Shown here piece by piece: positions 4,490 to 63,890 of a stretch of DNA of 64,000 bases (position 1 is its first letter; each line of letters begins with the position of its first letter). The stretch comes from Chiloscyllium plagiosum (taxonomy: Eukaryota): the NCBI RefSeq assembly GCF_004010195.1, contig NC_057749.1, positions 13,824,543 to 13,888,542 on the forward strand, given 5' to 3'. Position numbers and translations under genes: made by a program. The notes beneath the pieces are model-generated. The model was not told where the DNA came from, did no database searches, and saw only the letters and a list, made by a program, of their open reading frames with translations.

Positions 4490-6430
4490 TACAAACATGT
4501 GAAATTAGAGTCAAAGTGGACAACTCAGCCCCTGAAGTCTGCTACACCATTCAACCAGAGCAAGTCTGATCTGTTTGTGTTTTGAATTGTACATTCCTAA
4601 TCATCTTCGATAACCTTCAATTTTTTGCCCAATAAGAATTCACCTGCTTCTGCCTCAATAAAACTCAATCACCCACAAGAGGAAACATATTTTGCACTTG
4701 CACCTTGTCAACGTCATTCAGGATCATGCATGTCTCAATCAAATCACCCCTCATTCTTGTAAACACCAATGGAAATATGTCCAGTCTGTTCAATCTATCC
4801 TCATAGAACAACCTACTTATTCCAAGTATCAATTAAATAAACCTCCTCTGAACCATCTTCAACACATTTAGATCCTTCCTAACATAAGGAGACCAAAAAT
4901 GCACACAGTATTTGGTGTGGTCTCACCAACATCCTGTACACTTAAAGCATAATGACTACTTTTATGTTTAATTCCTTTCATAACAGATAGCATCCTATCA
5001 ACCTTCCTACTTGGGTGCTGTACACACATACTAAATTTTAGTGACTCATGCACAACTCCTAAATCCAACTGCACTTTGGATTTCTGCAGTCACTCTCTGA
5101 TTAATACTCTGCTTTTACATCCTTCCTACCAAAGTGACATTTTTCCACAATGTACTCCATTTGTCAGATTTTGGTCCACTCAATGAATCTTTCTATATCT
5201 CTTTGCAAACAGTTTGTCTTTTTCATAACATATTTTCCTATTTATCTTGATGTTGTCTGTGTATTTAGCTACCATGCCTTCATTCCTCTCATCTAAATTA
5301 TTGATATAAACTATTAAAACAAACAGTAGGATCAGCAGAGACCCCTGTCACCTCATGCCAATCAAACAGACCCATCTATACACATACTAGCTGACTAGCA
5401 GTGAACATTTATCTATGCTAATATGTTACCTTGTATGCCATTATTTTTTATTTCCCCAATTACCTTTGATGTGGCATCTTATCAAATGCCTTCTGAAATC
5501 CAGTTACATCTGTCGCAGTTGTGGGTATTTTCGTCGAGCTTGGAAGTTGATTTGCAGACGTTTCACCCCCTGTCTAGGTGACCTAGTCAATGCTTTTGAG
5601 CCTCCTATGAAGAGCTGCTGTAATGTCTCTTCTGGAATTTATTTGGTTCCATTCCGGCTGCTTCCGTTTGCCGGTTCCGGTTGTTTGTTGTAGTGGCCGG
5701 TATATTGAGTCGAGGTCTACGTGTTTGTTGATGGGAGTCCGTGGATGAATGCCATGCTTCTCAAAATTCTCTGGATGTCTTATGTTTAGCTCGCTCGATG
5801 ATCGTTGTGTGGTCCCAGTCGAATTTGTGGTCCTTGTCATTTGTGTGTATGGCTACTAAGGACAGCTGGTCGTGGCATTTAGTGGCAAGTTGTTGTTCAT
5901 GAATGTCAATTGCTAGTTGTCTGCCTGTTTGTCCTACATAGTGCTTTGTGCAGGCTTGTGCAGGTCGGAGAAGTCTGGCTGTCAGTACAGAGTCGTTTTT
6001 TTAATATTAGGTCCATGAATCCAATTACACCTACTGGCTCCGCTTTATCCAAAACACATGCTCTTTCTTCAATGAGCTTTAACAAATTGGGTAAAGATGA
6101 ACTCCCCCCAAAACAATGCTGAATCTTCCCAATTACCCTGTTTTTTCTAAGTCTGCAGGGATAACCTGCTGAATAATTGATTTTAACACTTCCCCCGATG
6201 AGAGATATCAAGCTAACTGGTGTACAGTTTTCTTTCTCCCTTCCTCCTTGAATAAAAGAGATTGTATTGCTGCTTTCCAGTGTAATGAAACTTTGCCTGA
6301 ATCAAGGGAATTTTGGAAAATTAACACCAATGCATCTATTAACTCATTTGCCACTACTTTTAATACTTTAGGATGAAGTGAAGTGAATCTGGAACCCAGA
6401 GACTTGTCAACCTCCAGCTTCATCAGTTAG
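4490..6430 (-). mobile_element. Old CR1-type LINE remnant interrupted by a Penelope insertion at about 5508-5955
   Basis: CR1 3' tail near 4490-4570; RT fragments DLGVVHESLK and HPKVLKVVANELIDALVLIFQNSLDSGKVSLHWK (ORFs 4868..5074 and 6208..6423). Boundaries approximate. Confidence 0.75.
5508..5955 (-). mobile_element. Penelope-like element 3' fragment (GIY-YIG C-terminus plus pLTR with decayed hammerhead)
   Basis: Minus strand translates CTKHYVGQTGRQLAIDIHEQQLATK...FDWDHTTII...EAWHS; homologous to 63357-63890. Confidence 0.85.
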
Positions 6431-6450
6431 TTCAGTATCATGACCTCATT

Positions 6451-7163
6451 GGTCATAGAGATGGACAGCACGGAAACAGACCCTTCAGTCCAACAAGTCC
6501 ACGCTGACCAGATATCCGAACCCAATCCAGTCCCATTTGCCAGCACGTGGCCCATATCCCTCTAAACCCATCCTATACATATGCCCATCCAGATGCCTTT
6601 TAAATGTTGCAATTGTACTAGCCTCCATCACTTCCTCTGGCAGCTCATTTCTTACAAGCACCACCCTCTGCGTGAAAAGGTTGCCCCTCAGGTCTCTTAT
6701 CTCTTTCCCCTCTCGCCCTAAAACTATGCCCTCTAGTTCTGGACTTCCCCACCCCATGGAACAGACTTTGTCTATTTATCCTATCCATGTCCTTCATGAT
6801 TTTATAACCTCTATGAGGTCACCTCTCAGCCTCCAACGCTCAAAGGAAAACAGCTCCAGCCTATTCAGCCTCTCCCTACAGCTCAAATCCTCCAACGCTG
6901 GCAATATCCTTGTAAACCTTTTCTGAACCCTTTCAAGTTTCACAACATCCTTCTGATAGGAAGGAGACCAGAATTGCAGGCAATATTCCAAAAATGGCCT
7001 GTATAACCACAACAGACTTCCCAACTCTTCTACTCAATAAAGAAAAGCATACCAAATGCCTTCTTCACTATCCTATCTACTGCGACTCTACCTTCAAGGA
7101 GCCATGAACCAGCACTCCACTGTTTCTTTGTTCAGCAACACTTCTTAGGACCTTACCATTAAT
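6451..7163 (-). mobile_element. Younger HER1/CR1 LINE 3' fragment
   Basis: ORFs give LEYCLQFWSPSYQKDVVKLERVQKRFTRILP...RLRGDLIEV and RGNLFTQRVV...FKRHLD; the 3' UTR matches 44886-45077. Confidence 0.9.
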
Positions 7164-7834
7164 TATAATTTTACAAAGTTTCTTCCTTCATTCCATCTCC
7201 TGATTTACTGCTATCCCTGGAAAGTTGTTTGTTTTATCCACAGAGAATGATTCACTTGACATTGATTAGGGAGCTAATTCTTTCCTCCACAGTGCAGGGA
7301 AAAACAGTTAGCTAGTATGTGATTCAGATTAATCCCTAATTAATCCCTGCATTGGCTGAGGTAGACTTAGATCTTGCCTTCTTACTCAGTGCCTCAGAGT
7401 GAAAGGCAACGCCAAATTACCACTGACAAACAACTGCCAAGAAAAATAGCTCAGGATGAAGCATTATCAGACAATGAGCCAAGGAACTGCCTTTGGGCAG
7501 ACCACATGTTAATGAATGAATGCTTCATGTACACTGCCAGAAAATTCTTTAAAATTTACACAGTAAAAACTCTAGAGCTAGAATATTGCGTGGTGGATAA
7601 TGCAAAATGGTTTACAATTAGAAGTCCTCTAATGTTTGTCTTAGTAGGGAAACATACTACATGAAGGAGTATTGAGAAGCTATAAAACTCAAATATTTCC
7701 TAGTTGCGAGCTGGATTTATGTGAAATGTATTAGTGTTACTTGGCTGTGCAATAAGACAGTACTTTGGTTAAGATTCTATCTGGCAAAGCCTCTGTTTAG
7801 AGGTAAAGAGTAAACTGAAACTTAGTAAAGAAAA

Positions 7835-10216: not shown

Positions 10217-10353
10217 CTGGAGTTCATGCGTGCTCGAAGTTTCTTGGCCTTCTTCCTGACTTTCTGCTTCTCTTCTGCATCCTTTGATGTCTCAGGGTGC
10301 ACACAGGTCTCAGTTACAATGTCTGTAATGTACTTCTTGCAGGATAGATGCTC
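10217..10353 (-). CDS. SCAPER: SCAPER exon (137 nt) EHLSCKKYITDIVTETCVHPETSKDAEEKQKVRKKAKKLRARMNS(R)
   Basis: Acceptor ttccatcAG, donor CAG|GTAATG, phase 0 to 2. Confidence 0.94.
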
Positions 10354-13300: not shown

Positions 13301-16300
13301 AGGTTCTACCTGTTTAAAAATGTTTACAATTTTGAAAAATGTTGTTCTTCCCTTTCATTTTCTTCTTTTCTAATTTACGTTTGGAAGAACCAATGTCATT
13401 CTTCCAGGAATGCACCTAAAATGCTGAGAGTCTACAGTTGTTCCATGGAGCAACAGTGATTCCATCCTTATCTGATGCCTATAGTGCATTATGAGCACAA
13501 GGGGAAACCTTAGCTGATTTCTCCCCTCCTTAGCTTGGGGCACTGATATCTGAATATAGAGTCTTGGCACACCTCCAACAGAGTTTGGCTGATGTAAATA
13601 ATGTTTGGAATCCAACTGAAGATCTGCCTGGTCTCTACTACTCAGTTCCAGATTGGAAAGTGCACTCATCTGGAAAGCCACTGGAGAAATCGTTTTAAAT
13701 TTTAATTTACATTTTTGTTAATCTGTCAGAAACTTATTAAAGTTCTCTGGCACTTGTTTAATGCTGAAATTATGGATCTTTCAAACTTGTGAACTAGATT
13801 CTGTATTTTTATCATCTGTCCAATCGTCTCCATATTATGAAGAGTAAAAATCTGTATAATAGCTTTATACAATCATAAAATATATTCATTGTCCATAATC
13901 TGACATATCACAATACAGCTTTGTGATGGTTTAGTCCACTTTAATGATTTAAATTAAGATCTAAACACAGATCTAAAAGTAATTTTGTTTTATGATTGCT
14001 CCCTCTCTGGGTTAAACCCAAAGCATTTAAACATTTTTGTTTAAAAAATGGTCCAATTCTGGTGTTCCATTCCAATACAGCACCACAAAAGAAACAAATA
14101 CTTTAAATGTGCCTGCCACGGTATCTGGCTGGGGAGATGAAACACAACCGTCCTACCCACCTGCAGCTGTGGAACAGATTCAAGAAGTTATCACTGATAT
14201 AATCTATTCACTCACTGATGTTCCTGTCTAAAGTGATAACTGAACAAAACAAACCTAATCTCAGTCTCTGAAACCGACACCCATCAGTAAGAAAGCTTGG
14301 ATATAAAATGACAAGTCAGCCAGCTGTTCCACTGTCACTGTACAACAATTACAAGCTGTCCATCAAATCAGGAGGATGGGTGTGGCAATGAATAAGGACA
14401 TAAGCCTGGTTACATTTTCCAATGCACAGTTTCGGATTTAAAAATCTGTCCTTTATTGCAAGACCCATGCACTATCAGAAATCCAATAACTATACACATT
14501 TGTCATTCAACAGCTGATATGGCAAAGAGCTAATGTTAACTGGGATATAGAGAAAACAGTGAGCACGAGAGAGAGGGAGACAGAGTGTGTGTGCGAGAGA
14601 GAGAGAGAGAAAAACAAAGATTGGCGCCTGTATCTTCTGCAACACCAAACCAGTGCTACATGATTCCAGGCGTTTCTCAGAGTTCTCACCTTTCAGGTTG
14701 TGCAGCTTGGACAAAATATCAGAATTCAACTCTAAGAATTCATTAGGAAAACAATGAAGTAATGATACCTCAATTCTGACATGAGTGTCATATCTCAAAG
14801 GTGGAGATCAAAGTACTGGATTATCACATTAAAACAGATTAAACAGCATTATGTTCAAACTGGCAGCTTTGACTTTTAGCTAATGTGAAATAACTCCATT
14901 AAACTGCTTCGCTCAACACTAAGTTAAAAAGCAGCTAATGTTTGACAATTTAAAGTGCATTTTAAATGACAAGAAACAAACAAATCAAACTTAAATAAAA
15001 AATGGAAAGCGTTGAGATAATTCAACAGGTTTGGCAGCATCTGTTGAGAGAAAAACAGAGTCAACATTCAGAAAGCGAAGTCATCGAGGACTTCAAACCC
15101 CATGTCCAATGAAGATCCCTCAGCACTGTTTTAATTTAGATTTCCAGCATCCACAGTTTTATTCAGATTTTTATTCAGTAAGGATATCAAATGATATGGA
15201 GCAAAGGTAGGATAAATGTAGGTGCATACCAGTCATGAACAGTGGAACAAACCTGAAAGCTGAGTAGCCTACTTCTACTTCTACCCCTAACATATCTTTT
15301 CACTTGTACAGAACTATAATCATGTATAACACACCAATTGGGTGGAGGGGGGTGGAATCCTCATGGATGAGGAGTCTGGTACAGTTAAGGAATTGACAGG
15401 AATCTTGCTTTGGCTTATTCAGAGAAACACCATTATTTTAGCTGCTTGAATTTTAGATCATGCAATCATAAATTCAACCTGAAAGCTGAGTAGCCTACTT
15501 CTACTTCTACCCCGAACATATCTTTTCACTTGTACAGAACTATAATCATGTATAACACACCAATTGGGTGGAGGGGGGTTGGAATCCTCATGGATGAGGA
15601 GTCTGGTATAGTTAAGGAATTGACAGGAATCTTGCTTTGGCTTATTCAGAGAAACACCATTATTTTAGCTGCTTGAATTTTAGATCATGCAATCATAAAT
15701 TCAGTCTATTTAAAACAGTGATAATCTTCATCTTTTATTTTTTAATTTTCCAGGAGATGAACTATGTCAGTTTTACGCCTTGAAACTTAGAATTTATTGT
15801 TGTTTGAGACACTAAATGATCTCTATCAGCATGTTTTATACAATATGATTATAAAAAAGGTATTTGATAATTAAAACTAATAGGGACAATGAATGAGATA
15901 GTTTATAAGAGAAAAAGAAATGCATCATTCATCTGAAAACCATTCATCCAAAATACAGTACATCTGACAAGAGAGCACTTTCTCAGTACTGGGAAAAAGC
16001 ACAAAGAACTGCAGATACTGGAAATTGGAAATGAAAATGAAAATTGCTGGCAAAACTCAGCAATTCTGGCAGCATCTGTGGAATGCAAGCAGAGTTAACA
16101 TTTTGGGTCCAGTGACCCTTCTTCAGAATTGGTGTCTGCTTTCACTCCACAGATGCACCAAAGCTGTTGAGTTTTTTCAGCAATTTGTTTTTGTTTCATC
16201 CTCATTACTGCTCTACAATACCGATCCATATTATGCACTCAAACTCTGGTTTGAATCAATAATCTTTTGCCTCAGTTTATGAGTGATGTCATTTTTATTA

Positions 16301-19300
16301 AAAAAGAGCATTGTTACACTTTCCTACAGATCAGCAGGATTAATTCAAGCATCCCAATGTAATTTTGACCGTCCCAGCCATGTCTGTCAACATGGAAATG
16401 TTGAGTAGATTTACAAATCATCTATCCTCCCTCCAAGCAATGAATGGAAAACTCCATTCTGATCCATATGATCTTTCTCAGCTCTTGGGGTACATGCTGG
16501 CCAACAACAAATTCATAACTTTAAAACTACCACATTTGTACAGAGATCCATACATTTTTATTTTCATGGTACTTTATTGCTGTGGAATTCACCACAATAT
16601 AAACTAGCACAGTTCCATAATAATCCAGATCCATCAGAAGTAGTTTGGCAGAAATGCTTCAGGAAACCGTATTGGACTATAAATGTCCTGAAGACAGATT
16701 CCTGGATTTCTTATTTGGAAGTTTAAGAATTAACAAAATTTCATTATCTATTATTCCATTCGGGCCATATTTGTGACTATTTCCATATTTGAGAAGCACT
16801 AGTTATGCATGTTAATGATGATCTGTTGGCCATTGAGAGATCAGTGAAAAGATTTTGAATAATTTCCTGAAGTAATAATTCTGCGAGAGGGGTGAAGAGT
16901 CAAGCACCAAATGTTAATACAACAAAGTTAAAAGTCACTGCAAAATAGAATGTTTTCAAATAAAAATCCCACCCACCCTTCAAAGTTTTTATTTCAATAG
17001 CAATAAAGATCTCAAGTAGTTTAAGTCTGCAGCATTAGGTTTTCCCTCAAGACATCTGCTCCACAACAGTAATAATATGACCACTTGATCTCGATAAATA
17101 ACTAAGACAAATAAATAGGTCCACAGTTTATGTATCAGCCACAAGCAAATGAAGAAACTGTATGTCACAGTTTAAAATTTTAAAGAAATTACATTACATT
17201 TTGCAATACCATTAAAGCATTCAATTAAAAAAAATTCTAGAATTAAGTAAAATAATCAAGTCTACATCATTTACTTTCAGCTGATGGTGAATGTGAATGA
17301 TGCAAAACTTAACTGTGAGGAGAATAGTGGAGAACTTGAAAACATCATCGACAAGCTATTGGGCAAGTGGCAGCTGCAATTCAAAGCAGAGAAAGTGAAA
17401 TGATTCATTTCAGAAGGAAGGACATGGAATTGCAATACAATATAAAGTGAACAAATCTGAAGTGGATGCAAGAGCAGAGATGCAGGTATGTATGTGCCTA
17501 AGCCATTGAAGCTAGCAGGACATGTTGAGAGTGCAGTTAACAAAGCATACCAGATCCCTAATAGGAGCAGAATACAACAGCAAGAACATTAAATTGAACT
17601 TGCATAAAATGTTTTGGCCTTGGCTCACATACTGTGTCCAGCTCTGGGCATTGTAATTTAGTAAAGAGGTGATGCATTAGACAGAGTACAGAAAAGATTT
17701 ATGAGAATGGCTCTGTGGATCAGGAACTTCAGTAATGATCAGATTTGACAAGTTATGACTGTTATCCTTAGAGAAAATAAGGCTGAGGGGAAGTTTGATA
17801 GTGTATTAAAAGCAATCAGCAGTCTGGACAGAATAGATAGGGAGAAACTGTTCCGACTCTCGAAAGCATTGAAAATGAGAGCAAATATTTAAAGCAATTA
17901 GCAAAAGAAGCAAGAGTGGGAGACAAGACTTGGTGCAGAGACGATGGGCCAAATGTCTTCTTTCTAAATCATAAAAGTTCTGCGATTCTACCATAACCAA
18001 TCCAATGTTACATAATATATAATAATTCACATTTTTAAAAAAACCATTAAAATTCCTTATTTAGCAATTTTAATTATATAGACAGGTTAGTTTATGAGGA
18101 GTTAAAAATTATATTCTGTAATGATGAATAAATTTTTAAAATCTTGGATTCATATCATACCTTATCATGACACATCTCAAAGCACTTCAGGCAATGATTA
18201 ACTTTTGCAGTTACTGTTAAGTGGGCAAATGAATATACATCTCTTTCATGATTCATGTGTGGTATTATATATACTTTTATATATACACACATATGGGCAG
18301 CATAACATTGGATATAATTCATTTTATTTAATCTAAATTGTCCAATCAATTATAAGTTATAAACCAGGAAAGTAAAAAATGGACATTAATTTAATTAGGA
18401 CAGTTTTTTAAAATTCAGACATAGATATATAGGTGCATTAAGAAGTTGACTTATCTGTTAGTGTTAACTTTTTATTAATGAAGATCAGAAATAATTAAAT
18501 GCACCCAATTTCCATTCACCACTGTCTGAATTTCTTGCAGAGTTTTATTTCTTTTCTGCTTTCCTCTCCTCAGATGAGCAACCTTTCAGCTAGGCTGGTT
18601 TCACCAGCATTGGTTGCCATTCTGCAGTTAATAAAGCAGACCAGATCCCGAATCAACCCGAATTTCAGTGCAGAGCTCTTGTCAGAATGATGATTTCATA
18701 GATGAGCTAAATTCTGTCCTCATCTAAAATGCACACATCCACACACATATAAGTTCACACATGTTGGCATACAAACATTTTCCCCTTAGGTTCCAAGACA
18801 ACAGAAGCCCTGCCTAAATCTTTCTTCCTCTCACTCAAAGTTCTGATGACAATTAAAATGTTTCTATTGTCACCTTGACTCAGGTTATTTAACATTGCAC
18901 ATGTCAATAAACAAACCAACACCCTACTAAATTCATTAGTTGTCTCTGTGAAATATTTTTGGTCTCCTAGCATTCATTTATTGCTTGCCCCATATCTTTG
19001 TTTCAGTCAGTTCGGCTCTATACAAGTAATTGCCCATCTATCCTTACAAGGTAAGGGTATTACACATAATGGAATCAAGTCAGGTAGATGGAGGTCAAGG
19101 CGTATAATCAGTCATAATCCAGCTGAGTGGTAGAAAGGGCTCAAGGGGCACTTAATGTCATTCGCCTAGCCAGGATGATTCAGTTCCACAGTGGGCTCAG
19201 CATTTAACAACTGAAGCATTTGAGTTTCTAATCTAATGAGTGGAATTAGTCCCTTTGAAGAAAGTGGCGCATATTTAATGATATTTGTAATGTCTATTGG

Positions 19301-22300
19301 GTATGAAGAGAGCGATTCTGATTTGTATTGCTTAAAACTACACTCTCTAAATGCGCTTCTTAAAAATGGACACTTTGCTAGACTGACAACATGGATGCCA
19401 TTGATCACATGATGTCTGTTGACCAAAATTTCTGCCAGGTTCTGACTTTCCATAAGTAACCAGAGGACAAATGCTCCTACCATCTTGCTGGAATGCGGCA
19501 CTGCATGTATTGTACGAATATTCCAGTCAACTTAACTCAAAGAACTAGCAGACCAGATGTCTACCACAGCCAGTTTTGAACTAAGGACACCACTCTTATG
19601 AATTGACCTAATGCAAATTATTCCACAGTTATCTCCACAAAATACAATTGTTTCTGATAAAGGAACATCAAAACCACCTCACAGACGTTATCTCCCCACC
19701 TGGAAACCCTTGTCAATCAACTACTGGATTGTTTGAATCACATTCAACTATACAGTTTTGACACATTCATTGGTCTGCTTGTAATACTAAAAGGGTAAGT
19801 AGCTCCAGACTCAGCTAAACACATATCTTTTGATTTCTCTTTTATGGTAGACATCTGGTCTCTGAAATTTAACTACTGTTTTGATTGCAAAATGCGCCAA
19901 CCTCTAAGGTTACAATCATAGCATCTTCATCAGCAATTCGACAATGTCCCAGGTTCCTCTGAAAGAGGTTGTCGTACACAGTGAACTGCAAGAACCTCAA
20001 CTGGACAACGACATTACAGATTTGCAAACTCAATCAACTAATTCTGATATTTTTATTTTAAAATAAATAATAATTTCTCTCCTTTCCTTCCCCATTTCAT
20101 TCTTTCTTTCTTTCTTAAATGCATTTGCGGGTAAATGTGCATCGCAGACCATTCTCCTGAAGCTTTGAAAGCTTTATTAAACCCTACTTTGTTTTAACCC
20201 TAAAAGATTTGCTGTGGGTCATTTTTAATTGGACTTCCCAAACAAGATGTAGGGAAACACATTGCCATCCAACTTTTTAAAAAAAAAAGAAAAAACATTA
20301 AACTCAACAACTCGTGCTTTAGATGGGGCGGGGGGGTCAGGTAGGAGAAGAGACAGTAAAAATTATTCAATATACCACTTCCTTTTGTTCGTGACACATA
20401 ACTTGGAACACTGAAAATAGGTGAATGTAAAAACACAATCATATTTTAGTCTGTTACAGTCAAATGGAGGAAAAATTAGCTATTTGTAACAAATTTCATA
20501 CTAAATGGAAAACATTTTACCAGTTTGAAGTAGGTATTTTCTTAAATAGCTTGCATCACCCTCTAAGGTGTTACATTAATACTGATGCCGTGCTACATTT
20601 TCTGAAATGCAATCATAAGATATTTAAGTGGTGTGAGAGAATCCACACAAAGTCAATTATTCTTTTTTGTAGCACTGTATAAAGCATCCTGAAAATACTT
20701 TGAAGGGTTGAACTTTGAATACATTTGCGCAATTATTTTGACTATTATCAGCTTACGCAGCCTAGGGCTGTTTCACAATATGACAACTTAAGTTTAAGTT
20801 TAGGTTTAATATGTTTATTGAAGGTCACTGCACAAACTTATAATCATAAATGCCACAGAGTGTGAACAGAAATAATTAAAACGAGTTTAACCTGGTGCTG
20901 AGGTATTGTACCACACTGATGTATAATAAATAAGTGTGCCTTTAAAGGAGGGATCTCTGATTGAATGTATTGCTTTTTTCAGCACAATGCACTTAAAATC
21001 AGTCAAATCAGTAAAAAGTACTGTAAAATTGAAGTATAAATGATATCCCGCGCATTTCAAGATTCCACAAAGTTTTGGAATAGTTCAACATTATCGTTCT
21101 ACGTTATGCTACGCTTTTCAAGCGCCACATTTTTCGATTCATTCTAAGTTGGTACAACCCAAAAAAGCACGCTCCGAATCAAATTATTTATGATTCAAGT
21201 TTCAGCTATTTTCCCCCACTTTAATGGTCTTTGATGAGGCTCTTAAAATTAAAGAACCTCTTGTTGGAGCAAAGACACTAATAACTACATTTTACAAGCT
21301 TTTGAATTTTTAAAGAAATGGTTAAGAAGCTGACCATTGTGCCTCAATATAATAACAAATAGCTCCAAGGTTTTTTTTAAAAGAAGTCATTTTTAATTGT
21401 TTACAATTGACTTACTCACAGACAATAAAATACACTCTAAGTATAATTGCTTATTAGTGAATTTTGAGAAGATTTGTAGCTCAGGATGTAGGTTTGCTTG
21501 CTGAGCTGGAAGATACATTTTCAGATGTTTGGTCACCATACGAGGTAACATTATCAGTGAGCCTCCAGATGAAAAACTGGTGGTATGGCCCACTGTCTAT
21601 TTATGTGTTTAGGTTTCCTTGGGTTGATGATGTCATTCTAGCTCAGCAAGTAAACCTACATCCAAAATTCACTAAATGGGTACAGAATTCATGTGTGAAG
21701 CTGTTGAACTCAATGTTGGGACCAGAGGCTATAGAGTGTCTACGTTCCACCAGCATGTGTTGTGCTTCACTGGACCACTGCAGTATGAAAGCAAGGTGAT
21801 GTGCTAAAATTGTAAAAACTAAAACATTTTATTTTCAGTATTTTTGATGTAGACTGAACTGGGAAAACAACTGTTTGAAAAGCCAAGTGTTGTTTATATT
21901 GCAGCTCAATCAAAAAGAGGGGGAATGTTACTGCAGATAGGCTGACAACAGGTGGTCTGTACAAAGTGAAATTAGACCAGAAACAAGTAACTGATTGGTT
22001 TGTGGAGTGACGATCAGTTATTGATGACAAAAGCCTTCTGCCCACCAACAACTACATGATTGGCTTCCAGTTGGCCGAATAGCTTGAGTATGAACAATAT
22101 GGCTAGATGCTTTTGGACCTCCGAAAAGTGGTATTTCCCTCTGCATTGAAAATTACCCAAAGCCTGAAGAAAGCCAGTTTATTTTCCATCATCATTCCTG
22201 CAAGTTGTTGCTTTAAACCAATAAGTCAAAGACTTTATCATTTGTAAACCAGTTGCTCTGTGCCTCCTGCAAGGGAGTGAAAGTACTTGAAGTGAGATTG

Positions 22301-37300: not shown

Positions 37301-40300
37301 CAAATGGGTCACCCTGAACTACTCCCCTAATTAGGTCAGCACAAAAAAGTGTGGGACAATGAGTCAATGGTTCAGTACGACAGCTTAGGATAGCTTTATA
37401 AAGAATATTAAAAGGGAATTAGTCTCAGATTATTACTGAAACCAACACAGAGCTAGAATGCACATTGCAGCATTCCTTTCAATAACTCTAACCCAAACCT
37501 TTGAATTCTTATTTAGCAACTATAAACTGATCAACATCACAAAGTGCAGAATGCACAATTATTTATATAACTTGATCTCAACTAAATAATTGAAAGAATT
37601 CTGCAGGAGTGTTATAAAGCTGAATTTGACATTGAACCTCATAATGGAAGATTAGGGTGGATGGCAAAAAAAGGTGTCAAAAATTGTCCAGAAATGTCAT
37701 TTTACAGGTAAGTGGTTCAATAACAACAATGTCAAACTCAGCAATATCTATCTTGTAAAGTTCACCTTACCAACATCACAGGAGAAAGTGAGGTCTGCAG
37801 ATGCTGGAGATCAGAGCTGAAAATGTGTTGCTGGAAAAGCGCAGCAGGTCAGGCAGCATCCAGGGAACAGGAGAATCGACGTTTCGGGCATAAGCCCTTC
37901 TTCAGGAATCAACATCACAGGACTAAGGTTAAAATTGCAAGCGATGTCTCACAGAGTACAAAGGTATAAGTCCATCAGCGTGACAACGTACCACACAAAA
38001 CCGTCTCCATCCCTGGCTATATCCTGTCCTACTGGCAGGACAGAACCAGCAGAGTAGTGTAACAGCAGTACACATTTGGGAAGGAGTTCCCTGGGAATGA
38101 TTAACATTAAATCTGGGCCCCATGAAGTCTCATGGTATCAATTAAAGATGGGCAAGGTAACTACCTGCAGATTACCACGTACCTAACCCTATTACCACTC
38201 TCCCACTGCCCAGATGCTAGACTATGCTTGGTCAAGTTGAAGAGAAAGAACCAATAAGAGGGAACAAGACTCAACCTCACCCTTATTAATCTGCTTGCTG
38301 CAGTCACAAGACAGCATTGGCAGAAATAACCACTGCATTTTTCATATCCATCATGCTGTGTGGCACACTAAGTGAAACAGATCTCAAACCAATCTAGCGA
38401 CTTAAGACTGGGCATCCATGAAGCATTGTGGGCCATCAGTAGCAGTAGAATTAAACTGAAACACATGGCCTGACATATTCCCCACTCCATCTTTAGACCA
38501 TCAAGAGAGGGTTGAAACCCTGGCTCAAAGAATGTAAGAGGGCATGCAAGTTGCATATGAACATACAAAATAGGAACCCCAGAAGTCTACTTTTCCATTC
38601 AATAAGCCGATGGCTAGTCTGTTTGTATTTCAAATTCTACATTCCCATCTACCATCAATAGCCCTTAATTCCCCTGCCTAACAAGAAAGTCAACCAGCTC
38701 TGTCTTAAAAATATTTGAATGCTGACTAGCTAGCAGTATCCACATCTCATGAGTGAATACATAAATTAAAATAACCCAACCTTCTGAGGTGGAGTACCAA
38801 AGTCAAACAATCCTCAGAGAAAAAAATTCTCAGCTCTGCCCTAAAAGGGAGATCTTCATTTTTATACGTGGTCCCCTAGTTCTGGACTGATCTACAAGAC
38901 TAAACATACTTTCCACATCCATCTTGTCAAGGTTATTCATGATCTCGTACACTTCAATCAAGCCATCCCTCACCAGGAATGCCTAAAGATGAGAGTCAAC
39001 CCGGTGAAGCTACAATACAGGACTATTTGCATGTCGAATAGCATAAACAGCGAGAGACAGATGGGGCTAAGCAATTACACAACTAATGAGTCGAATGTAG
39101 GGTGCTGGAAAAGCATAGTAGGTCAGGCAGCATTCAAGGAGCAGGAGAGTCGAAGTTTCCAGCATGGGCCCTCCATCAGGAATTCCTGATGAAGGGTTCA
39201 AGCCCAAAACATCAGCTCTCCTACTCCTCGGACACTGCCTGACCTGCTGTGCTTTTCCAGCACCACACTTTCAACTCTGACCTCCAGCATCTGCAGTACT
39301 CACTTTCTTCCACAACCAATGGATCAGATCCAAGCTATGCAGTCATGCTAGATCCTGTCATGAATGATAGTGGACAGCTAAACAACTGATTGGAGAAGGC
39401 GGCTCCCCGCAAATATCCCCATCTCAATGATGGGGCGGCCAAGCACATCAATGTAAAAGACGAGGCTGAAGTATTTGCAACATCTTCAGCCTGATGGTTC
39501 GACTGGATAATTAATTTTGGTTTCTTACCAAGGGTCCCCAAATCACAAATAAGCCAATTCAATTCATTCCATGTGGCATCAAGAAATGGGCTGAAGGCAC
39601 TGGATACTGAAAAAGATATGGGCTCTGACAACATTTTGTCAGTAATACTGAAGGTATATGCGCCTGAACTTGCTACACCCTAGCCGAGCTGTGCATGTAC
39701 AGCTAAAACACTGTATAATGTGTAAAATTGTTCAGTTATGTCATGCACACACACAAAAAAAGGCCAAATCCAACCTGGCCAATAATCCCCCCCAAGTCTA
39801 CTCTTAACTGTCAATAAAAATACATGGAAGAGATCATCAAAGGTACTATCAAAAACATTTGCTTAGCAATAACCTGCTCACTGCTACTGAGCTTAGGCTT
39901 TGTCAGGGCTAGTGAGCACTTGACCTCATTACAATCTTGGATCAAACATGGACAAAATAAAGAGCCGAACTAGAGAGTAGAAGTGATCTTGGCACTGGGT
40001 AGGCGACACAGCTATGTGCACTCACGCTCTTTGCTGCGAAGAACAATGTCAATTTGACTGATTATACTATTTCCATTACCTAAAATGTTCATTTTTTCTC
40101 ACCCTTTAATGACTTCCTGTACCACAGTGCAACGGTTATTTAGTCTATCCACCCTGCAGCCCTCCACTTCCATTCAATCAAGCTGAAAGAACCTCAACTT
40201 GTTGGACAACTGCAGAAGCAGAGGCTCCTGCCTTCCTGGCCTCTCGGTCTCCTTTGCAGTCACTCTTCTGTCCTTGAATACTGATCTAATCAGAAGACCC

Positions 40301-46300: not shown

Positions 46301-49300
46301 TTTGCTCTTATATTGCAGATCGAACTGCAAAGAGCCTGAAATAATCCATCAAGCATAATCAAAACAAAATGGGTGCGCAGCCAAAACAGAGCTTGGAGAG
46401 GGATAGATAAAACTATGATCAGAGATTTAGGTTTTCAAGAGAATGTTTTAGAGCTTGGGTTGCTAATTACTGGGCAAGCTGGTCTTAGGAGTGCTGGATC
46501 TATTCTTCCAAAGGAAATACTATAAATGATATGTCCAATTTGCAACGTAGAAAGCACACACCATCAAAAGCTCTTGCAATCCAGCCTCGGAAATCCTGAT
46601 GATACCATACTATGTATGGCTATTTACTTATCTGATTTGAATTTTATAAATGTGAACATTTGCTAAAGACTGTACTAGCATTGTTACAGAAATGTACAAC
46701 TAGAATACAAAAACAATTGTCAGACTTCAGAAATTAATGGGAACTTGCTACATAGCACTGAAGCTCTGTGGTATGTTTCAAATTGTCTGAAAGGCTAAAC
46801 ACACCAGCTTTAGTGGTATCTAGAAAGTAACTAGTTAAATGAGAATGCTTTTTTTTGCAGTATCATGTTTATCAGGCTTTTCGCGAAACAGAATTTCATG
46901 AATTAAGTATATGACTGCAGTCACGAGTCATAACAATAAATCTGAGGATTAAAGGTAACAATGTGTTATAAGACAAAGTCGAAAGAAACATTATACACTT
47001 GAGAATATTTATGAATTCAGTTGTATCTATAACCTAACAATTAGAAATAATGTTAAATTAATTTCAAGAATATTAAGTACAAAGCAACTCTGTTTTCTCA
47101 ACTATTATCTTTAGCATACATACATTATTGAATCATTTCATACATTATTAGTATGAAATTACAGTGACTTGTTTATTGTGAAATTTGTGCTTATCAAAGT
47201 AAGCTTTATCAGAGTTGAGGTATGGAGCACTATGTCAGCATCATGTACATTCAGATCATTAATTTCAAAACATTCAGAATTTTAGCACTGGGTGGAATAC
47301 CTTTACTATCATTATGTCATCCAACCATTCAGTAGCTAATGGTTGGGTGCCAGCACAGGCACTAGTCCTGGAAACAAAGTGTCCTCTGAAGCAATTCAGT
47401 TACAGAAGGGGAAACTTTTCAGAGCCAAGAATTTAAACATTAATAATATCCAACATAAAATGACAACTTAATACAAATGTGTAGTCTCCTGGACTCTTGG
47501 AATGATTGATATTTCTAGATTACGGATTTATAATACCAGACAGAATTCTGAATTTCACATCAGTGTAGGCTAATTCTTCAAAAACCAGCAGTAACCACAT
47601 CACGGTCAACAATTCTGTTCTGTAAATTCTGCTGCATGGAACGGATGCAAAATGAATTGAGAAATGAAAATGGAATAAGTTCAGAATAAATTTACTGTCT
47701 CTGGTGGCACTGGATCTTTATACAAAATATTCAGACACCTGGTATTCAGAACATTTCTCATAATGGACCAAAGCTACAGATACCAAATAGTTGTGATAAA
47801 ATCTCTTCCCTGAAGGGTTGTTTTTCAGAAAACAACTTTTTTTGGATGGTCATTTTTGTGTGTGGTGTCAACCTGGATATGAAGATTCCCGATCAAAGGG
47901 CAGGCGGTGAAATAGAGTCTTTAAAAATAAGTCAATGCTCTGTTTGAAATCTGAAAGCATAATAGTGTAATTACATCACTAAATAGGTCTTTTTTTTCAA
48001 ATTACAGGGTTACAACACTGTTGGAACTATGAACAACCTCAAATATGTGAAAGATAAATGCTTCTGCAGTCAGCTTTCGACCAGCCAATGCTACTTAAAC
48101 TAGACTGATGTATCTCCTTGTGCATTCCATTACACCAAAGTCATGTCTCCTTGCCTTAGTGCTCTCCTCCTGGAGCATTTTGTTTCTGCCCACTTTTCAT
48201 CTACATAACTGTCTACTAAGCTATAGGTTCATATTTTTCCCTCTGAGGCTCTTAACTTTGCTTCTTCATCCAAAAGCTTATTTTTGCTTCTCCTCTCTTT
48301 AATCACACTACCAAATAAAAATCTGCATTTCAACTTCATAGTTTTGCTTTTCCCTGCCTGATCCTAAATTTCTCCCTCACCTTTGGGACCCCATTATATT
48401 TCCAAAGATGTTCTTCATAACTTATCTATGCTCCCTTCTGCTATTTGTTTTTGTTACTGACTCTCCTAAACCTGAGTCCAAATTTCTCTGTTCCTTCATT
48501 TAAATTCAATTCCAACAGATCGCAAAACATCACATCTAGTTAATTATTTGTATGTGATCCTTCATTTGCCACAACTGCTTATTTATTCAAATTAACTAAT
48601 TACCATACAGGCTGCCCAGACATTCTTCATTCTCCAAGGCCTATTTTTATTTATTCCTTTGACAATAACTGTTTATTTAATCTGCTTAATTAACTAACCA
48701 ATGTTAATTCATATTCAGATTCGACTCCTACCAGAGGAAGAAAACCTCCTACCAGAGGAGCGATATGAATACAGTTGCAAGCAATATGCAGATGACACAT
48801 TGCAAACCAGGACATGACATCAGCTGCACAAAGTGCATCAGAGAGAACAGTTAATATAAACCTAAAATAACTTAAAACTGTTGTTACTACTGGAACTTTA
48901 TGAAAATTTGGAAACTCGCCATTACAAATTCAGCCTGAATATTGCAATTAATGATCACAGTACAACTGAGAAATGAAAGCAACAGAGCCTTGACAGGGAA
49001 AGCAAGTATGCTTCAAGAATGAAGCACTTGTACAAGTAAATACCGTCTTGTTGGTTGCATTATACTTAAAGAGACTTTTTAAACCTTGACTCATTTCATT
49101 TGATGACTTCATAATGACTACAAATGGAACACAATTTAATAAAATTGTATATTAGCTGTCTCACAGCATTTTTTAAAGTGATTGTAAACATTAAATATTA
49201 CAAAAGGAAGATTTTACCAGTTTATTTAGTTTATGTAGCTAGTGCATACCTTGAGGACATCTATAGAGGTGTCTTCATTCCTGTTAATTAACTTTTCTGG

Positions 49301-52300: not shown

Positions 52301-55300
52301 AAGAAACAAGGAAGAAACTTTCTAAACTTTCTTTAAAATGTTAAAGTAGTACTTGGATGAGCACTTGGAGCATCATTACATTCAAGGCTCTGGCCAAGTG
52401 CTGAAATTAATGCAGGTATTAGTGTACTTTTGGCCATTCAGACTCAATGGGCCAAAGGGCCTCTTCTTTACTGTATGATTCTATGATTGATTCCATGACT
52501 GAATGGTGGGCTTCAAAACAATGGGATACTACATTTTATTATTGAGGTTGAGACTGATCATCATGCGAAGGGGAATGCACACAAACTTGAACACAAAAAG
52601 ATCATGTAGCGTGGTGAAACTTGACTTACAAAAGAATACAACAACCATCCTAAGGCTTCTGCTGGCGCTGTAATCTGTACATTCATATGAGAACTCACCT
52701 TTATTCAGGCCAAGTTTAGTGAACATTTTAGAAATATTAGTAATGAGCTAGGTTTAAAGTGATATGTTCTGCGAGAAACATATAAAGAGAAACCCATAAA
52801 AATTCCACACATCTAACAGTACAGTACTAAATGGGAAGGTTTACTGGTCTTTCAAAAAGACGGGGAATCTTTCTAAAGGGATTTTAGGTTAGACTATCCT
52901 CCATTTACTGGCTTCGCATGTGTCTATTGTCTGAAGTTCTAAGGTCAGATTTCTTGCCGAAAAGCTGTTGTAAAAATGTCATTTTAGTCAAAGCTATCAT
53001 GTGCCTTTGAGCCACCTACAATCTTTAAATAGCTTTCAGAATTTTCAGTGTCTCTTGAAACTGGCAAAAGATATCCAGATTGGATTTTAAAAAAGCTTGA
53101 GAACTTTATCCAAGTATTTTTGATGCTAGCTTCATCAAAGATGACTTAATCCTAATCAGCATGAAGTATGTTCTGAGACCAATAAGACTTTTGATATCTG
53201 TGCCACAGATGTATAACTGATTCTGGGGAACTCTATGTTGCATCATATATCTATTTAATGATTTATTTTAAAATATAAAGTTCTGTAACATTTATCAAGT
53301 TCAAGTAACAACTAAAATATTCAATTCTCCATAAATACTTTCAAAAATACAAATATTATTAACCATTCTTTAGCTTTAGGCTACATTCAGCACAGACTCT
53401 ACAACTTGCTCTCTACTGTGATGTCAATGCACATTCCTTTATTCAAGTTCCTGATGATATAATTAAGCACAGAAACTGGATCTGACTGCCCTATTTGACT
53501 CAGTTGAAGGCAGGAAAAGATAGATGCACACTGCATCTTTGATGATTCCAGACATGATGCCCTCATGAAACTGGTAGAATCATCAGGATCAACACATTGA
53601 TAGAATTCAGAGCAATTACAGCACATGATTCATATCTGCAAAGGCAAAAGTGAGGACTGCAGATGCTGGAAATCAGACTCTAGATTCGAGTGGTGCTGGA
53701 AAAGTACAGCAGGTCAGGCAGCATCCGGGAAGCAGGAAAAAAAATTGACGTTTCAGGCAAAAGCCCTTCATCAGGAATGAAGCAAATATCTGCAAATAAG
53801 AATTGACCAACTTAAGCACAGTCCTGAATGCAAAGTAAACAAAGAACTGCGGATGCTGTAAATCAGAAACAAAAACAGAAATTGCTGGAAAAATGTAGCA
53901 GGTCTGGCAGCTGAAGTTCTGAAGAAAGGTCACTGGACCCAAAATGTTAACCATGCTTTCTTCTCCACAAATGCTGGGTCAAAAAGTGTGGTGCTGGAAA
54001 AGCACAGCAGGTCAGGCAGCACCTGAGGAGGAGGAGAGTCGACATTTCGGGCACAAGTCCTTCATCAGGAATATCTGATAATGGGCTTATGCCCGAAACA
54101 TCGATTCTCCTGCTCCTCTGATGCTGCCTGACCTGCTATGCTCTTTCCAGCACCACACTTTTCAACTCTGACTCTCCAGCATCTACAGTCCTCACTCTTT
54201 CCTCTCCACAGATGTTGCCAAACCTGCTGAGTTTTTCCAGCAATTTCTGTTTTTGTTTCTGAATGAAGAGTGCTTCTAGATTCTTCCAAAAGAAATGTCC
54301 TTCTCACATGCATCCCATGTAGAGTACATCACGGGTGGTTGCAGGGACAATGGGCTACTTGTTCCTAAGAGTTCTAATGTGGTACTCACAGCTGCAAACA
54401 AATATAGACAAAAGGAGCAACTAACTCCAATTTCCCACTACCTATCCTTTGGTGGCTCACCACAGCTGAAATTATGAGCTCAGAATAACATGAAGTTGCA
54501 CCAGTATGCCTCTCGTCTCTCGGGGTTACAAAAGCCACCATCCGACAAGCTTAGCTAGAAGTAACACTTCTCTTTCTGATGTCATCACTCTCACGTCGTC
54601 ACAACATAGACATTTTCGTACAACAGCACAGAACATGCTTTATTTCTCAAAACAGCAACAAATGTAAAAATCAAAACAGCAACAAATGTAAAAATCAAAA
54701 CAGCAACAAATGTAAAAATAACGTCAATGCCCAAATATATAGCAGAAAGAATTGTGGAATGGTCTGTCTGGAGGTTTAAAACAGATGTGGATTTCACCAA
54801 GGTTTCCAAACTAAAATCCTCTGAATATTGTCTATGAAGTAACCCTGGGGAATTATCAAGCTCATTAAATCTCTGTCACCAGATCCTATATTCTTCTGTA
54901 GTTGTTTCTAGTGCTGCAGAATGAAAAAATTGATTCTGCAGCGAAAGCACAACTTTCTTTAGGAAATTGACCAACCTGTCTTTTACGAGTTAGGACAAGA
55001 CTTCCATAAAATGTGTCAACGTTTGGAAGCACTTAAAAGAAATGATAACATCCTAGCTGTTCATACAAGCAAAAGATGTTTTATTCACAAGTTTTCTTAT
55101 TCATACATGTAATGCCTAATTGAACCATCTGCTCAATGAGAACTTTTGTAGATAAGCAGCACTGACCAAAACAATAATAACATTATACATTTAGACATGA
55201 AATGCTGTTAACAATTAGTACGCTACTGGAAAATGAGCAGCAAGTGAATTACTTCTTTCCTCTGGTGTCAAATAGTTTCGTCAACAAATCTAAATGCAGG

Positions 55301-60388: not shown

Positions 60389-61009
60389 CTGAGAAAAGAA
60401 ACTCATTATAATTAGGTTGCAAGTAATATCCCCTACTCCCACAAATCATAAATCAATGCTGGTTTGAGTTGCTCCTTTTTCTCTGCTGCAATTATGTGGC
60501 TATATTATCAGTGAAAATCGCTTCGGACAACTTTTTCACTCTGAATGAAGTACTAAATGGAATAAAATTCATGAGAAAAATTTCATAGAAGAAAATGGTT
60601 AATAAGCCTTGCAATTTCAATACTCAGACAGTGGAGCTGGTTTTGAAATTGTGCTATTTGTGGTGTCTCGGCTGATGCTTTTTCTCACTTATTTTGTCTA
60701 ATTTGAAGTCACAGCAAAATATTTATGGTTAAGTTTCATTTCTTTTCTTTGTAAATTTACTTCACGCTACATCCATTTAAACTGTACAAACACTGAGTAT
60801 TACTGTTATAGATGCTATATTTCCATAGCCCCTCTACCCTCATCTTAAGCAACATATAAGGATTTCTCAAACTAAAATTTAGATAATCTGTTTTCCTACC
60901 TCTGTCACATCTTTAACTTTCTGTCACCTACAAGTTACATTCCCACCAATGTTTTACCACTGGCCTTTGCTCTGGTCACCGTACTATGGCAAAGTGATTT
61001 CACTAAAGA

Positions 61010-61492
61010 GGTTCCAGAAGAGATTCACCAGGACACTGCCTGGGACGGAGTGCTTTAGCTATGATGAGAACTTTCATAAGCTGGGGTTGTTTTCTTCAGA
61101 GCAGAGAAAGTTGAGCGGGACCTGATACAAGTGTGTAAGATTTATGAAGGGTATGGACAGGGTGGACAGAAAGGACCTCTTCCCATTAGTTGAAGGGTCA
61201 ACAACGAGGAGGCACAGTTTTAACATGACAGGCAGGAGGCTTTTTGGGGTGGTTTGAGGAAAAACCTTTCACCCAGGTTGTGGTGGGGTTCTGATATGTA
61301 CTGACAGGGAGGGGTAGTATTCGCTAATTATTTCACAACATGGATGAAGTACTTGGATGAACACTTGAAAAATCATAACATTCGAGACTATGGGCCTAGT
61401 ACTGGAAAATGGGGCTAAAGTAGATGAAGTGTAGTTTTGGCACTACAGACACATTGGTCTAAGGGCCTCTTCTGTATTGTATGATTCTATGA
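61010..61492 (+). mobile_element. CR1 LINE 3' remnant
   Basis: RFTRTLPGTECFSYDE...LGLFSSEQRKLSGDLIQV and tail GGGCCTCTTCTGTATTGTATGATTCTATGA. Confidence 0.8.
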
Positions 61493-63356
61493 ATGTTTCT
61501 CTAGTTTCTCTCCTACCCTACCCTCTCTAAGCCCATCTAGTCCAGCTGACCTTCTCCTTCGTTCTTGACCCTACTCCAATTAAACAGCTGACCATACATA
61601 CTTGCTGATAATACATAAATGATTCCCACTCCTCAGGGACTAACCCACCACTCCAAAATAAACATCCATTATTCATCTATCTCTATGCTATCACCTATGT
61701 GCACTGACCGACACTGGCTGCCAGCCCACCAATAAATCAATTTTAAAATTTCATCCTTGTGCTCAAATTTCTCCTATGCTTGACCCGTTCCAAATTTTGT
61801 CATGCAACTGTCGAAAACTCTGATTGCCTCCAAATATGGTCTCTCGTGCATTCCCACTCCCTTTGGCAAATAAGCGCCACCGGTGTGTTCAGCCACTTCA
61901 GTACTAATCTCTGACATTCTTTCTAAATCTCCCCTCCATCATCTTTCACTTCCTTAGAATCCAACTTTAATAAGTTCAAACATTCTGTCGACTTATGCTT
62001 CTGTGAAGTGCTTTGAGTGCCTTTCTAGGCGTCAAAGAAATTGTCTCTTTTTGTATCCAATATCGTTTCTTCTTGTGGGAGGACACCACATTGTTGGCAA
62101 TGTGAAACTTACATCTTTCTCTGTCTCTTCTGTCATGACTCAGTATAGCTCTACTCTAAAAATGAACACTGACCATAATATGTGTCTGCTGACATTTAGG
62201 TAGAATGGCTTCAGATGTAAAAGGCAACCTAGGAAGTGGAAAAAAACACTGACATAAAGCTATTGTTTGAAATAATTAGATGATCTAAAGAGGCTGTGCA
62301 GCATAACATGAATCAATCTATAATGCACACAACTAGGGTGAATGTTTAAGAGGCAATTGCTTGAACTGTTCTTTTTGACAAGTTTTTGAAACTAAGCAAT
62401 CTCATCATGTGAAAGTAACTGCTTAGTATTTTTTGCACTTACATACAATTTTGGGCAAATTTGGGCAAATATAAAATTAAGCCTGCCCTTAGATATCTAC
62501 ACATCTTACCCTTTTCAATCTAGAAGCATCTCTTTGAAGATTCATAATCCAACTTTAATATGTTTCCATATTAAAGCCACAATGGTTTATGAAATCAATG
62601 AGATATATTTTGGAAGGGTATCACAACACTTGAAAGCAACTTTCCTATATAACATCAAATCTTAAACTTCCTGTAAATAATTTATTTTAATGGGACACAA
62701 AATTTAACATTGCCAAGAACTCTTTTTAACCTTTCAAGGGGAGTTAATTAACTGATTGTGCTAATTTAGAGAAAGGTGTTTGGAATTCTTGAATCAGGAA
62801 AAAGCATCTTGCTAAACGTTGCTGCTGAATTTCTTTAAATTGAACCAACTAAATGGAGGAATCTTATGAACTTATCAGTGACTGGTGAGAATATTTTGGA
62901 GGTGAGTGAAGACAGTGTAGTCTGATTCTAGATGCAAATTATTGAATAATAATGCATTATTATTCAGATGCAAATATGCTATCAAGTTCAACACAACACA
63001 CACCTACTGTACTTTTGATAACAACCTTGATTTAGATGCAGGTATTTAGAGTCAATGATTGATGCCTCTGGTGGCAGCCATCTGGATTTCCTCTGCAAGA
63101 TTTGTTTATAACTGACATGTTTCTTAAAACAAAACTGCAGCTGCTTACAAACATGACAATGGAGTTTAAAGTCAGGTTCAACTCACTCACAAACATAGTG
63201 CGCAATCAAAAAAAGGAAAAATAAACTGCCCGCAATTAAGAACATCACTTGAATTTGAATTCACTTTTCTGTACAGTTTCTTTATAACTCCATTCAAGCA
63301 GAATTAGATTTTCCAATCACTATTCCTGCATGGTTCCAAAGAATTCAATAAAATCA

Positions 63357-63890
63357 CAACTCATGTTGTGGGTACAACCCATGGACAAAACCAACGTCAT
63401 CTACAAAATTCCATGCAAGGACTGCCACAAACACTACGTAGGACAAACTCAAGAAAGTTAGCCACCAAGATACACGAACACCAGCTAGCCACAAAAAGAC
63501 ATGTCCCTCTCTCCCTCGTAGCCCTACACACGGATGAAAAAAACCCACCATTTTGACTGGGACAACACATCTATCCTGGGACAGGCTAAGCAAAGACATG
63601 CCAGAGAATTCCTACAGGCCTGGCACTCCAACCACAACACCATAAACAAACACAGAGATCTAGATACCATCAATCAACCCCACAGAAAACGAACAGGAAA
63701 TGACATCACCACAAACCCTGGGATCCCCATCCAGGACCAACATATAAATAGAAAACATTTCACTTGGAGGTTGCCACTGATGATGTTACCTAGCCAGGTA
63801 ATGAAACGTCTGGATATCAAACCTACAGGTCAGCGAGCAAATCTACATCCTAAACCTCAACTTGAGATACAAACCTTCACAAACCTTGCA
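63357..63890 (+). mobile_element. Penelope-like element 3' part: GIY-YIG endonuclease (frameshifted) plus pLTR
   Basis: MDKTNVIYKIPCKDCHKHYVGQT / RKLATKIHEHQLATKRH / HHFDWDNTSILGQAKQRHAREFLQAWHS. Confidence 0.9.
63774..63813 (+). ncRNA. Minimal hammerhead ribozyme motif in Penelope pLTR; predicted cleavage after 63810
   Basis: Identical to 33427-33466: CCA-CUGAUGA-U-GUUACC(UAGCCA)GGUAAU-GAAAC-GUC-UGG. Confidence 0.75.

Follow-up and report, generated by a model that had tools for sequence, protein, structure and literature searches.

Minimal type-I hammerhead ribozymes have been known since 2014 from the flanking repeats of Penelope-like elements (PLEs), where the motif shows a base left unpaired between positions 9 and 10.1, a G10.1–C11.1 pair, a short helix I and a palindromic 15.2–16.2 step (Cervera & De la Pena, 2014; PMC4209133). 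The consensus families in that account are rich in covariation, and the copies number in the thousands and are mostly solitary, with opposite-strand pairs 100–700 bp apart; cleavage as a dimer is also credited to Lunse, Weinberg & Breaker (RNA Biol, as cited in PMC6765202). Here, we describe motifs of this kind in a stretch of 64,000 nucleotides (the window) of the genome of Chiloscyllium plagiosum (NCBI RefSeq assembly GCF_004010195.1, contig NC_057749.1, positions 13,824,543–13,888,542 of the forward strand). With a probability of about 0.88, the copies are minimal type-I hammerheads of PLEs and lie near the 3′ end or pseudo-long terminal repeat (pseudo-LTR) of these elements. They come from at least four lineages, denoted A, A′, B and C. 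The window copies add members to a known kind of motif and, at the level of sequence, qualify as such in every respect.

Two other systems bear comparison. In the Poseidon element of Anolis carolinensis (PAc), reverse transcription starts at two sites, 111–118 nt into the open reading frame (ORF), which explains the tail of the insertions; cleavage is lost in the core mutants C3G and G8C and comes back in part when both mutations are combined (Frangieh et al., 2024; PMC11167929). Non-LTR retrozymes (Cervera & De la Pena, 2020, PMC7229834; Li, Clavereau & Pollet, 2026 preprint) are short, non-coding and related to PLEs and carry a type-I hammerhead, in all of which the copies described here resemble them. 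Retrozymes, however, form tandem arrays of at least two consecutive ribozyme units and are associated with circular RNAs, whereas the copies here are single or head to head. The window holds four tandem arrays, none with the motif, and same-strand neighbours in the fetched loci are irregularly spaced. A limited literature search, which yielded only a review, found no report of such motifs from cartilaginous fish; the consulted passages of PMC4209133 name none, and the 2026 retrozyme preprint sampled one chondrichthyan species.

The motifs of the window share with the metazoan PLE hammerheads of PMC4209133 the catalytic core, the unpaired base, the short helix I, the absence of loop III and the palindromic ACGU, as well as the division into compensatory families, mostly solitary copies, opposite-strand pairs and an associated ORF with reverse transcriptase (RT) and GIY-YIG domains. 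They differ in number, with 168,951 intact motifs in this genome against ∼4,000 in coelacanth and ∼9,000 in Xenopus, in the length of helix II, which is 4 bp in the main family here (the passages of that paper stress 6–8 bp), and in family A, which closes helix II with a G·U pair.

Recognition of the motif and covariation of its helices

The preliminary description of the window listed 13 ribozyme arms. Each site was read letter by letter, and all 13 arms exist with the layout assigned to them, which consists of CUGANGA, one extra base, a helix II hairpin, GAAAC–GUH and flanking bases that can pair. The exact pattern CTGANGAN{6,30}GAAAC matches the window five times (1.16 expected), a count that was reached in 0 of 100 shuffles. 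Four of these matches, at 33430–33460 and 63777–63807 on the forward strand and at 37881–37905 and 53750–53774 on the reverse strand, are intact hammerhead cores; the fifth (53451–53476, forward) lacks helix II and looks like a chance occurrence. The remaining arms (5554, 8200, 16093 and 21521 on the reverse strand, both arms at 39180, 53916 on the forward strand and both arms at 54070) are decayed, in agreement with the description of most copies as such.

A covariance search for minimal hammerheads, which had been proposed at the same time, was carried out with a model (R1) built from an alignment of 50 distinct copies, which included four window copies, and with filters off. R1 recovers 10 of the 13 arms at E ≤ 0.004 (E values from 1.9e-15 to 0.0038), with the next match at E = 0.7, and gives 143 matches in the 316,938 bases of the window plus the fetched loci. 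The missed arms (5554 and 21521, reverse, and 53916, forward) were placed by blastn and tblastn as decayed A′, A-like and C members, respectively. The copies in the window are as follows, with scores in bits from R1.

33427–33466, forward: family A hammerhead with intact core; helix I CCA/UGG, helix II GUUACC/GGUAAU; 51.4 bits, E = 1.5e-11
33156–33528, forward: 5′-truncated family A Penelope-like copy, comprising a C-terminal GIY-YIG remnant, the ribozyme and a tail
63774–63813, forward: family A hammerhead with intact core; 50.4 bits
63371–63764, forward: GIY-YIG remnant directly upstream of the 63774 ribozyme (tblastn)
37780–37909, reverse: family B copy of 130 bp, the first letters of which (AUUC) form the 5′ side of helix I; intact hammerhead at 37873–37910, followed by the tail region; 65.7 bits
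53735–53786, reverse: family B (B2 type) hammerhead with intact core; helix II closing pair G–U; 58 bits
8193–8244, reverse: decayed family B hammerhead (A9>U, CG>CA); 44.5 bits
39140–39225, both strands: decayed family B head-to-head pair, with the junction where helix I begins on its 5′ side (..CAGGAAT joined to ATTCCTG..); 33 and 32 bits
54029–54114, both strands: decayed family B head-to-head pair; 43.4 and 29.2 bits
16085–16138, reverse: decayed family C hammerhead; helix II GGGUC/GACCC, helix I GUU/AAC; 20.6 bits, E = 0.0038
53916–53951, forward: decayed family C hammerhead, 88% identical to the 16093 copy; no R1 match at E ≤ 10
5554–5964, reverse: decayed family A′ copy, in which a GIY-YIG remnant (5586–5964) runs into the hammerhead (5554–5593); helix I GCA/UGC
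21521–21560, reverse: decayed family A relative; helix I UCA/UGA; 69–80% identical to family A by blastn, missed by R1

The family A copy around 33427 has a tblastn match over 33156–33443 with 77% identity, and its extent corresponds to positions 1311–1629 of fetched locus L001 (window 33210–33528); compared with most reads of the family, it lacks 2 bp at 33475. Cleavage of this copy is predicted after C33463. On the 37780 copy, loose ends of reads and contigs fall at 37780–37782, 37815–37820 and 37909, and the short-end class of the family ends at ∼37815–37820. The 5554 copy is 75–77% identical by blastn to three fetched loci (L047, L018 and L026) and is also matched by tblastn. The helix I variant UCA/UGA of the 21521 relative recurs in a second, unrelated copy (L083:3458–3515); in both, the two sides are changed relative to CCA/UGG, which hints at a subfamily rather than at two chance changes in one dead copy. 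Within 700 bp at 53600–54300, a B2 copy (53735–53786, reverse), a C copy (53916–53951, forward) and an inverted B pair (54029–54114) lie together, a cluster in line with published reports that these elements tend to insert side by side.

The core columns C3-U4-G5-A6-N7-G8-A9, G12-A13-A14-A15.1 and U16.1-H17 are invariant in all 50 aligned distinct copies. The unpaired base between A9 and 10.1 is U in A and A′ and A in B and C, in 50 of 50 rows by visual inspection. Helix II comprises 4–7 bp and helix I 3–5 bp, and loop III is absent; where helix III would stand there is only the palindrome ACGU. Intact copies all carry GAAACGUH, whose palindromic segment A15.1-C-G-U16.1 is predicted to be able to pair with a second copy.

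The 3.56-Gb assembly that contains the window was searched with the motif CTGANGA-N8–24-GAAACGTH, using the same pattern reversed as a control. The motif occurs 168,951 times (84,562 + 84,389) and the control 2,008 times (978 + 1,030), which is an 84-fold excess. When only spacers of at least 14 are counted, which leaves out most of family B, 34,353 motifs are found against 1,352 for the control; when the CG of GAAACGU is relaxed to any YR, the numbers rise to 292,106 and 6,553.

The preliminary description also held that stems I and II change in a compensatory fashion. Reading of the sites confirmed the helix I pairs CCA/UGG, GCA/UGC, UCA/UGA and GUU/AAC, and compensation was measured in the 50 distinct copies with a hand-written structure of four pairs in helix I and six in helix II, the 3′ partners being shuffled 500 times. 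In this structure, which was derived from the same 50 sequences, 83.5% of cells are paired compared with 64.1 ± 1.6% after shuffling, and none of the 500 shuffles equalled the observed value; registers slid by 1–3 columns give 16–55% (maximum 55.2%). Changes on both sides occur in seven of the ten pairs: four of six in helix II, in which 95% of cells are paired, and three of four in helix I (72%). The first pair of helix I (2.1–1.1) is C–G in 25 sequences, A–U in 14 and U–A in two; the third pair of helix II (10.3–11.3) is G–C in 34, U–A in 11 and C–G in three; and the closing pair of helix II is G–C in 28, G–U in 17 (family A) and A–U in two. Compensated variants were also seen by eye in the genome listing, namely GGGUC/GACCC versus GAGUC/GACUC and GUUACC/GGUAAU versus GUCACC/GGUGAC. 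The compensatory change of both stems is therefore upheld by the paired fraction and the two-sided changes, across lineages that are few in number.

Decay was followed in 86 copies other than the match for which a locus was fetched, all of them copies that R1 could find. All 13 core letters and H17 are retained in 36 of these unselected copies. The CpG positions C15.2 and G16.2 carry changes at 30 of 172 sites, all but one of them transitions (C>T or G>A), compared with 18 of 836 sites at the ten other core positions. The window has a CpG observed/expected ratio of 0.24, the damage to its arms is mostly CG>CA or CG>TG within GAAACGU, and the difference between the two genome counts gives ∼123,000 otherwise intact motifs with a YR other than CG. 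The view that old cores have decayed largely through their CpG is thus supported.

Penelope-like context and the short copies of family B

The best 40 genome matches to window 33400–33490 (family A) are 96–100% identical. In 30 family A loci, the shared sequence starts 50–580 nt upstream of the ribozyme and ends 75–115 nt after the ribozyme start; the varied starts are the pattern of 5′-truncated retrotransposed copies. An ORF upstream of the ribozyme matches RVT_1 (E = 4.5e-7 in locus L013) and GIY-YIG (E = 1.5e-4 in L005), the family A GIY-YIG score of 22.5 bits being just under the Pfam cut-off of 22.6, and the order RT, GIY-YIG, ribozyme is seen on single loci (L005 and L020). The endonuclease region of family A′ is 45–53% identical to that of A. 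A full-length family A copy was sought among the loci, and all copies seen are 5′-truncated or contain runs of N. Among these, only in L081 (G000:C34), a candidate long copy, does sequence pass the tail, ∼115 nt after the family A ribozyme, where 2,658 N follow. Contig sets labelled as four organisms from eight studies contain sampled 31-letter words from the family A copy at 33300–33560 (shares 0.17–0.69), and several species thus seem to share this family or close relatives.

The motif lies 78–133 nt upstream of the 3′ ends of the insertions. By visual inspection, these ends form two classes in family A, ∼78 nt (17 of 30 loci) and ∼115 nt (13 of 30) after C3 and thus ∼37 nt apart; family B likewise has two classes, ∼35–40 nt apart. 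The two classes are the optional 30–40-bp tail described at the ends of Penelope-like insertions (Craig et al., 2021; Frangieh et al., 2024). Head-to-head partners are present at no fewer than 12 of the 30 family A loci and, by script, at 19 of 65 B/C copies, with more found by eye. Most insertions are short and dead, with their 5′ part missing.

Family B is by far the commonest; in the window it comprises the two inverted pairs and the reverse-strand copies at 37873, 8200 and 53743. A GIY-YIG ORF of a second type, preceded by a cysteine/histidine motif, lies upstream on the same strand at all four loci where it was seen (Pfam E = 0.0013, under the cut-off). Its contiguity with the B ribozyme is only partly shown, because the spacing between GIY-YIG and ribozyme varies from ∼160 to 720 nt. 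Family C (16093, reverse, and 53916, forward) has a 5-bp helix II and shares with family B a conserved block downstream of the ribozyme. The proposal that several families are Penelope-like consequently stands for A and A′, through the upstream RT and GIY-YIG domains, the variable 5′ truncation, the tail classes and the head-to-head partners, and holds in part for B, for which the GIY-YIG link comes from the four loci with varying spacing.

The block downstream of the B ribozyme that is also conserved in C (GAUGCUGCC.GACCUGCUG...UUUUCCAG) is seen at 37780–37877 (reverse) and at L055:1529–1630, and could be an RT entry site. In the tail region of family B, an 8-bp long-range stem is predicted between GGAUGCUG and CAGCAUCU, with its 3′ strand within the optional tail; the region folds no more stably than its shuffled versions (z = −0.3 to −0.4).

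The 5′ ends of family B copies are distinctive. Shared family sequence extends upstream of the ribozyme in no more than 16 of 65 B/C copies (12 B2 copies by script, and two B3 and two C copies by eye). In the other 49, it gives way to unrelated DNA or to an inverted partner no more than ∼4 nt from the CUGA box, a sorting made partly by eye. Discrete family B 5′ ends recur at locus positions 1494–1496 and 1430–1431, and, among 78 unselected copies, 37 have their first base at element positions 1–5. Copies that begin at helix I suggest either that the template RNA began there or that a ribozyme-plus-tail element of ∼100–130 bp spreads alone. Ends produced at the predicted family B cut were also considered and rejected: eight of 78 copies start 1–5 nt past it, and these ends are ragged, include several inverted-partner joints and form no sharp peak. 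A small cluster of 5′ ends at positions 49–53 merely marks where B/C homology begins.

It is possible, though we consider the odds to be against it, that family B, with >130,000 intact motifs, is a non-autonomous mini-element of ∼100–200 bp, made up of the ribozyme and an RT entry/tail region, that parasitizes PLEs in the manner of a short interspersed element (SINE). Such an element would be copied by PLE enzymes from RNA starting at helix I and would be related to, and distinct from, tandem retrozymes. The abrupt upstream ends of the 49 copies, the recurrent discrete 5′ ends and the starts at positions 1–5 all point this way, in contrast to the variable junctions of family A, and the 2026 preprint of Li, Clavereau & Pollet derives retrozymes from PLE pseudo-LTRs. 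Against this, longer B copies occur, with at least 300 nt of upstream sequence and the GIY-YIG ORF upstream; the sample is small and its loci were chosen around such motifs; a single-cell poly(A) run revealed no transcript start; and no tandem array in the window holds the motif. A very large family of ∼100–130-bp copies beginning at helix I may be a detail that is new to the literature.

Stop codon, probable start codon and possible role of the ribozyme

In families A and A′, the ORF that encodes RT and GIY-YIG ends in the motif: its final six codons and its UAG stop, which lies in loop II, overlap the ribozyme. In copy after copy, the family A ORF ends in ...LHLEVATDDVT and a stop inside the motif, where the codons ACU GAU GAU GUU ACC UAG supply in turn the CUGAUGA box, the helix II 5′ strand and the opening bases of the loop; the A′ ORF ends within the motif as ...STEDVT and a stop. 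In A, A′ and the decayed 21521 relative, A9, the unpaired U and G10.1 also spell AUG, and in each lineage no stop interrupts the frame that follows before the insertion ends; in all 30 family A copies it stays open for 21 codons or more. The peptides of this frame align as M-L/S-P-..-K-R/H-L-..-ELQ-T/I-F. A search with the 55-residue frame through the ribozyme, among longer proteins only, found no homologue.

By analogy with PAc, this AUG is probably the start of the ORF in A and A′. In that case the ribozyme would contain overlapping start and stop signals, the cut would fall 25 nt after the AUG (26 bp in PAc), and the start codon would sit, as in PAc, at the beginning of stem II. The insertion 3′ ends at ∼106–124 nt after the AUG, together with a second class 30–40 nt shorter that corresponds to the tail, also recall PAc. 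The two systems differ in that the start here is assigned by analogy, in a system known from its sequence, and in that the stop of the upstream ORF also lies within the ribozyme here (loop II), on which the consulted passages on PAc are silent. The presence of the stop codon and a probable start codon within the ribozyme may be new to the literature.

In active elements, the RNA would fold as a hammerhead and, as published for the class, would be cut after GUH only when two copies pair through ACGU, because the motif has no helix III of its own. If the A9-U-G10.1 start holds, the cut 25 nt past the AUG would separate translatable from processed RNA. In the same single-cell poly(A) run, from a library unsuited to detecting cuts, reads cover the A and B repeats only, in both directions and with no piled ends. 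Cofolding gives generic domain-swapped dimers, which are uninformative on the ACGU helix.

Several observations weigh against the assignment as PLE hammerheads. The window has no hammerhead in Rfam, neither at the gathering score nor at E ≤ 10, although the catalytic core is common to the Rfam families (types I, II, III, HH9 and HH10); in our reading, those models expect helix III. Helix I is very short, with a U·U mismatch at the third pair in the main B type, and helix II of family A is closed by G·U instead of the usual G–C. The shuffle control overstates the significance of the covariation, because the rows come from ∼4–6 independent lineages. Folding is better than that of shuffled sequences in family A (z = −2.27) but not in the other four of the five copies (−0.02 to −0.94), and the minimum-energy folds of A, B1 and B1b include helices I and II, whereas that of A′ misses helix II. 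No unit-length tandem pair of ribozymes, the arrangement that a cis dimer would need, was seen in the loci; for family A in particular, no locus held two direct ribozymes one unit apart, as pseudo-LTRs (a partial tandem with the ribozyme on both sides of the ORF) would have, and the sole candidate long copy reads N in its body. For the class in general, published activity in vitro is low and dimer-dependent (Cervera & De la Pena, 2014), and in PAc core mutants leave insertion in vitro unchanged and no RNA-seq ends fall at the cut (Frangieh et al., 2024).

These published observations also feature in a different explanation, in which cleavage in vivo is negligible and the motif is kept by coding and protein-binding constraints, since the stop codon, and probably the start codon as well, lies within it and the RT starts just downstream. 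The end of the ORF and the open A9-U-G frame within the motif speak for it, and the Naiad PLEs are published as thriving without the motif. We nevertheless regard this explanation as improbable. All 13 core letters are kept across lineages in which the endonuclease is only 45–53% identical, B and C keep the core with no start or stop codon within it, helix II compensation falls on the strand outside the upstream ORF, and PAc does cleave in vitro, an activity that combining C3G with G8C rescues (PMC11167929). That the matches are chance finds to a short, loose pattern, one of whose five window matches lacks helix II, is already refuted by the genome control with its 84-fold excess, by the conserved flanks of the repeat families in which the copies fall and by the covariation of helices I and II.

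Other features of the window and implications

A tandem duplication at 15250–15703 (227-bp unit, 2.0 copies, 98% identical) contains no ribozyme motif. The open frame at 2159–2407 (forward) matches the Pfam family ALKBH8_N above the cut-off (E = 2.6e-5); the ALKBH8_N model often matches the RT tails of long interspersed elements (LINEs). The open frame at 61958–62200 (forward) has a weak match to Tmemb_170 under the Pfam cut-off (E = 5.4e-4) and may be an exon of a host gene. Weak matches resembling C/D-box small nucleolar RNAs at 29638–29718, 46684–46771 and 18683–18716 (all forward; 21–26 bits against a gathering score of 45, E = 1.8–6.7) are most likely to be due to chance.

With ∼0.17 million intact and ∼0.29 million near-intact copies, the motifs are among the most abundant ribozyme motifs reported for a genome of vertebrate size, and their lineages form a natural series of compensatory helix I and helix II variants. 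It remains doubtful whether the ribozyme is the organizing point of the element, with start and stop in the A/A′ ribozyme and >100,000 B mini-copies of ∼100–130 bp derived from RNA that starts at helix I. If this were true, the ORF would wrap around the unit and the cut 25 nt past the AUG would decide between message and template; the commonest lineage would be a minimal SINE-like parasite of the Penelope enzymes, unlike tandem retrozymes. The stop and probable start codon in the ribozyme, its fixed distance to two classes of RT start and the family that starts at helix I all bear on the role of the ribozyme in the retroelement, a question for which this genome would be well suited.

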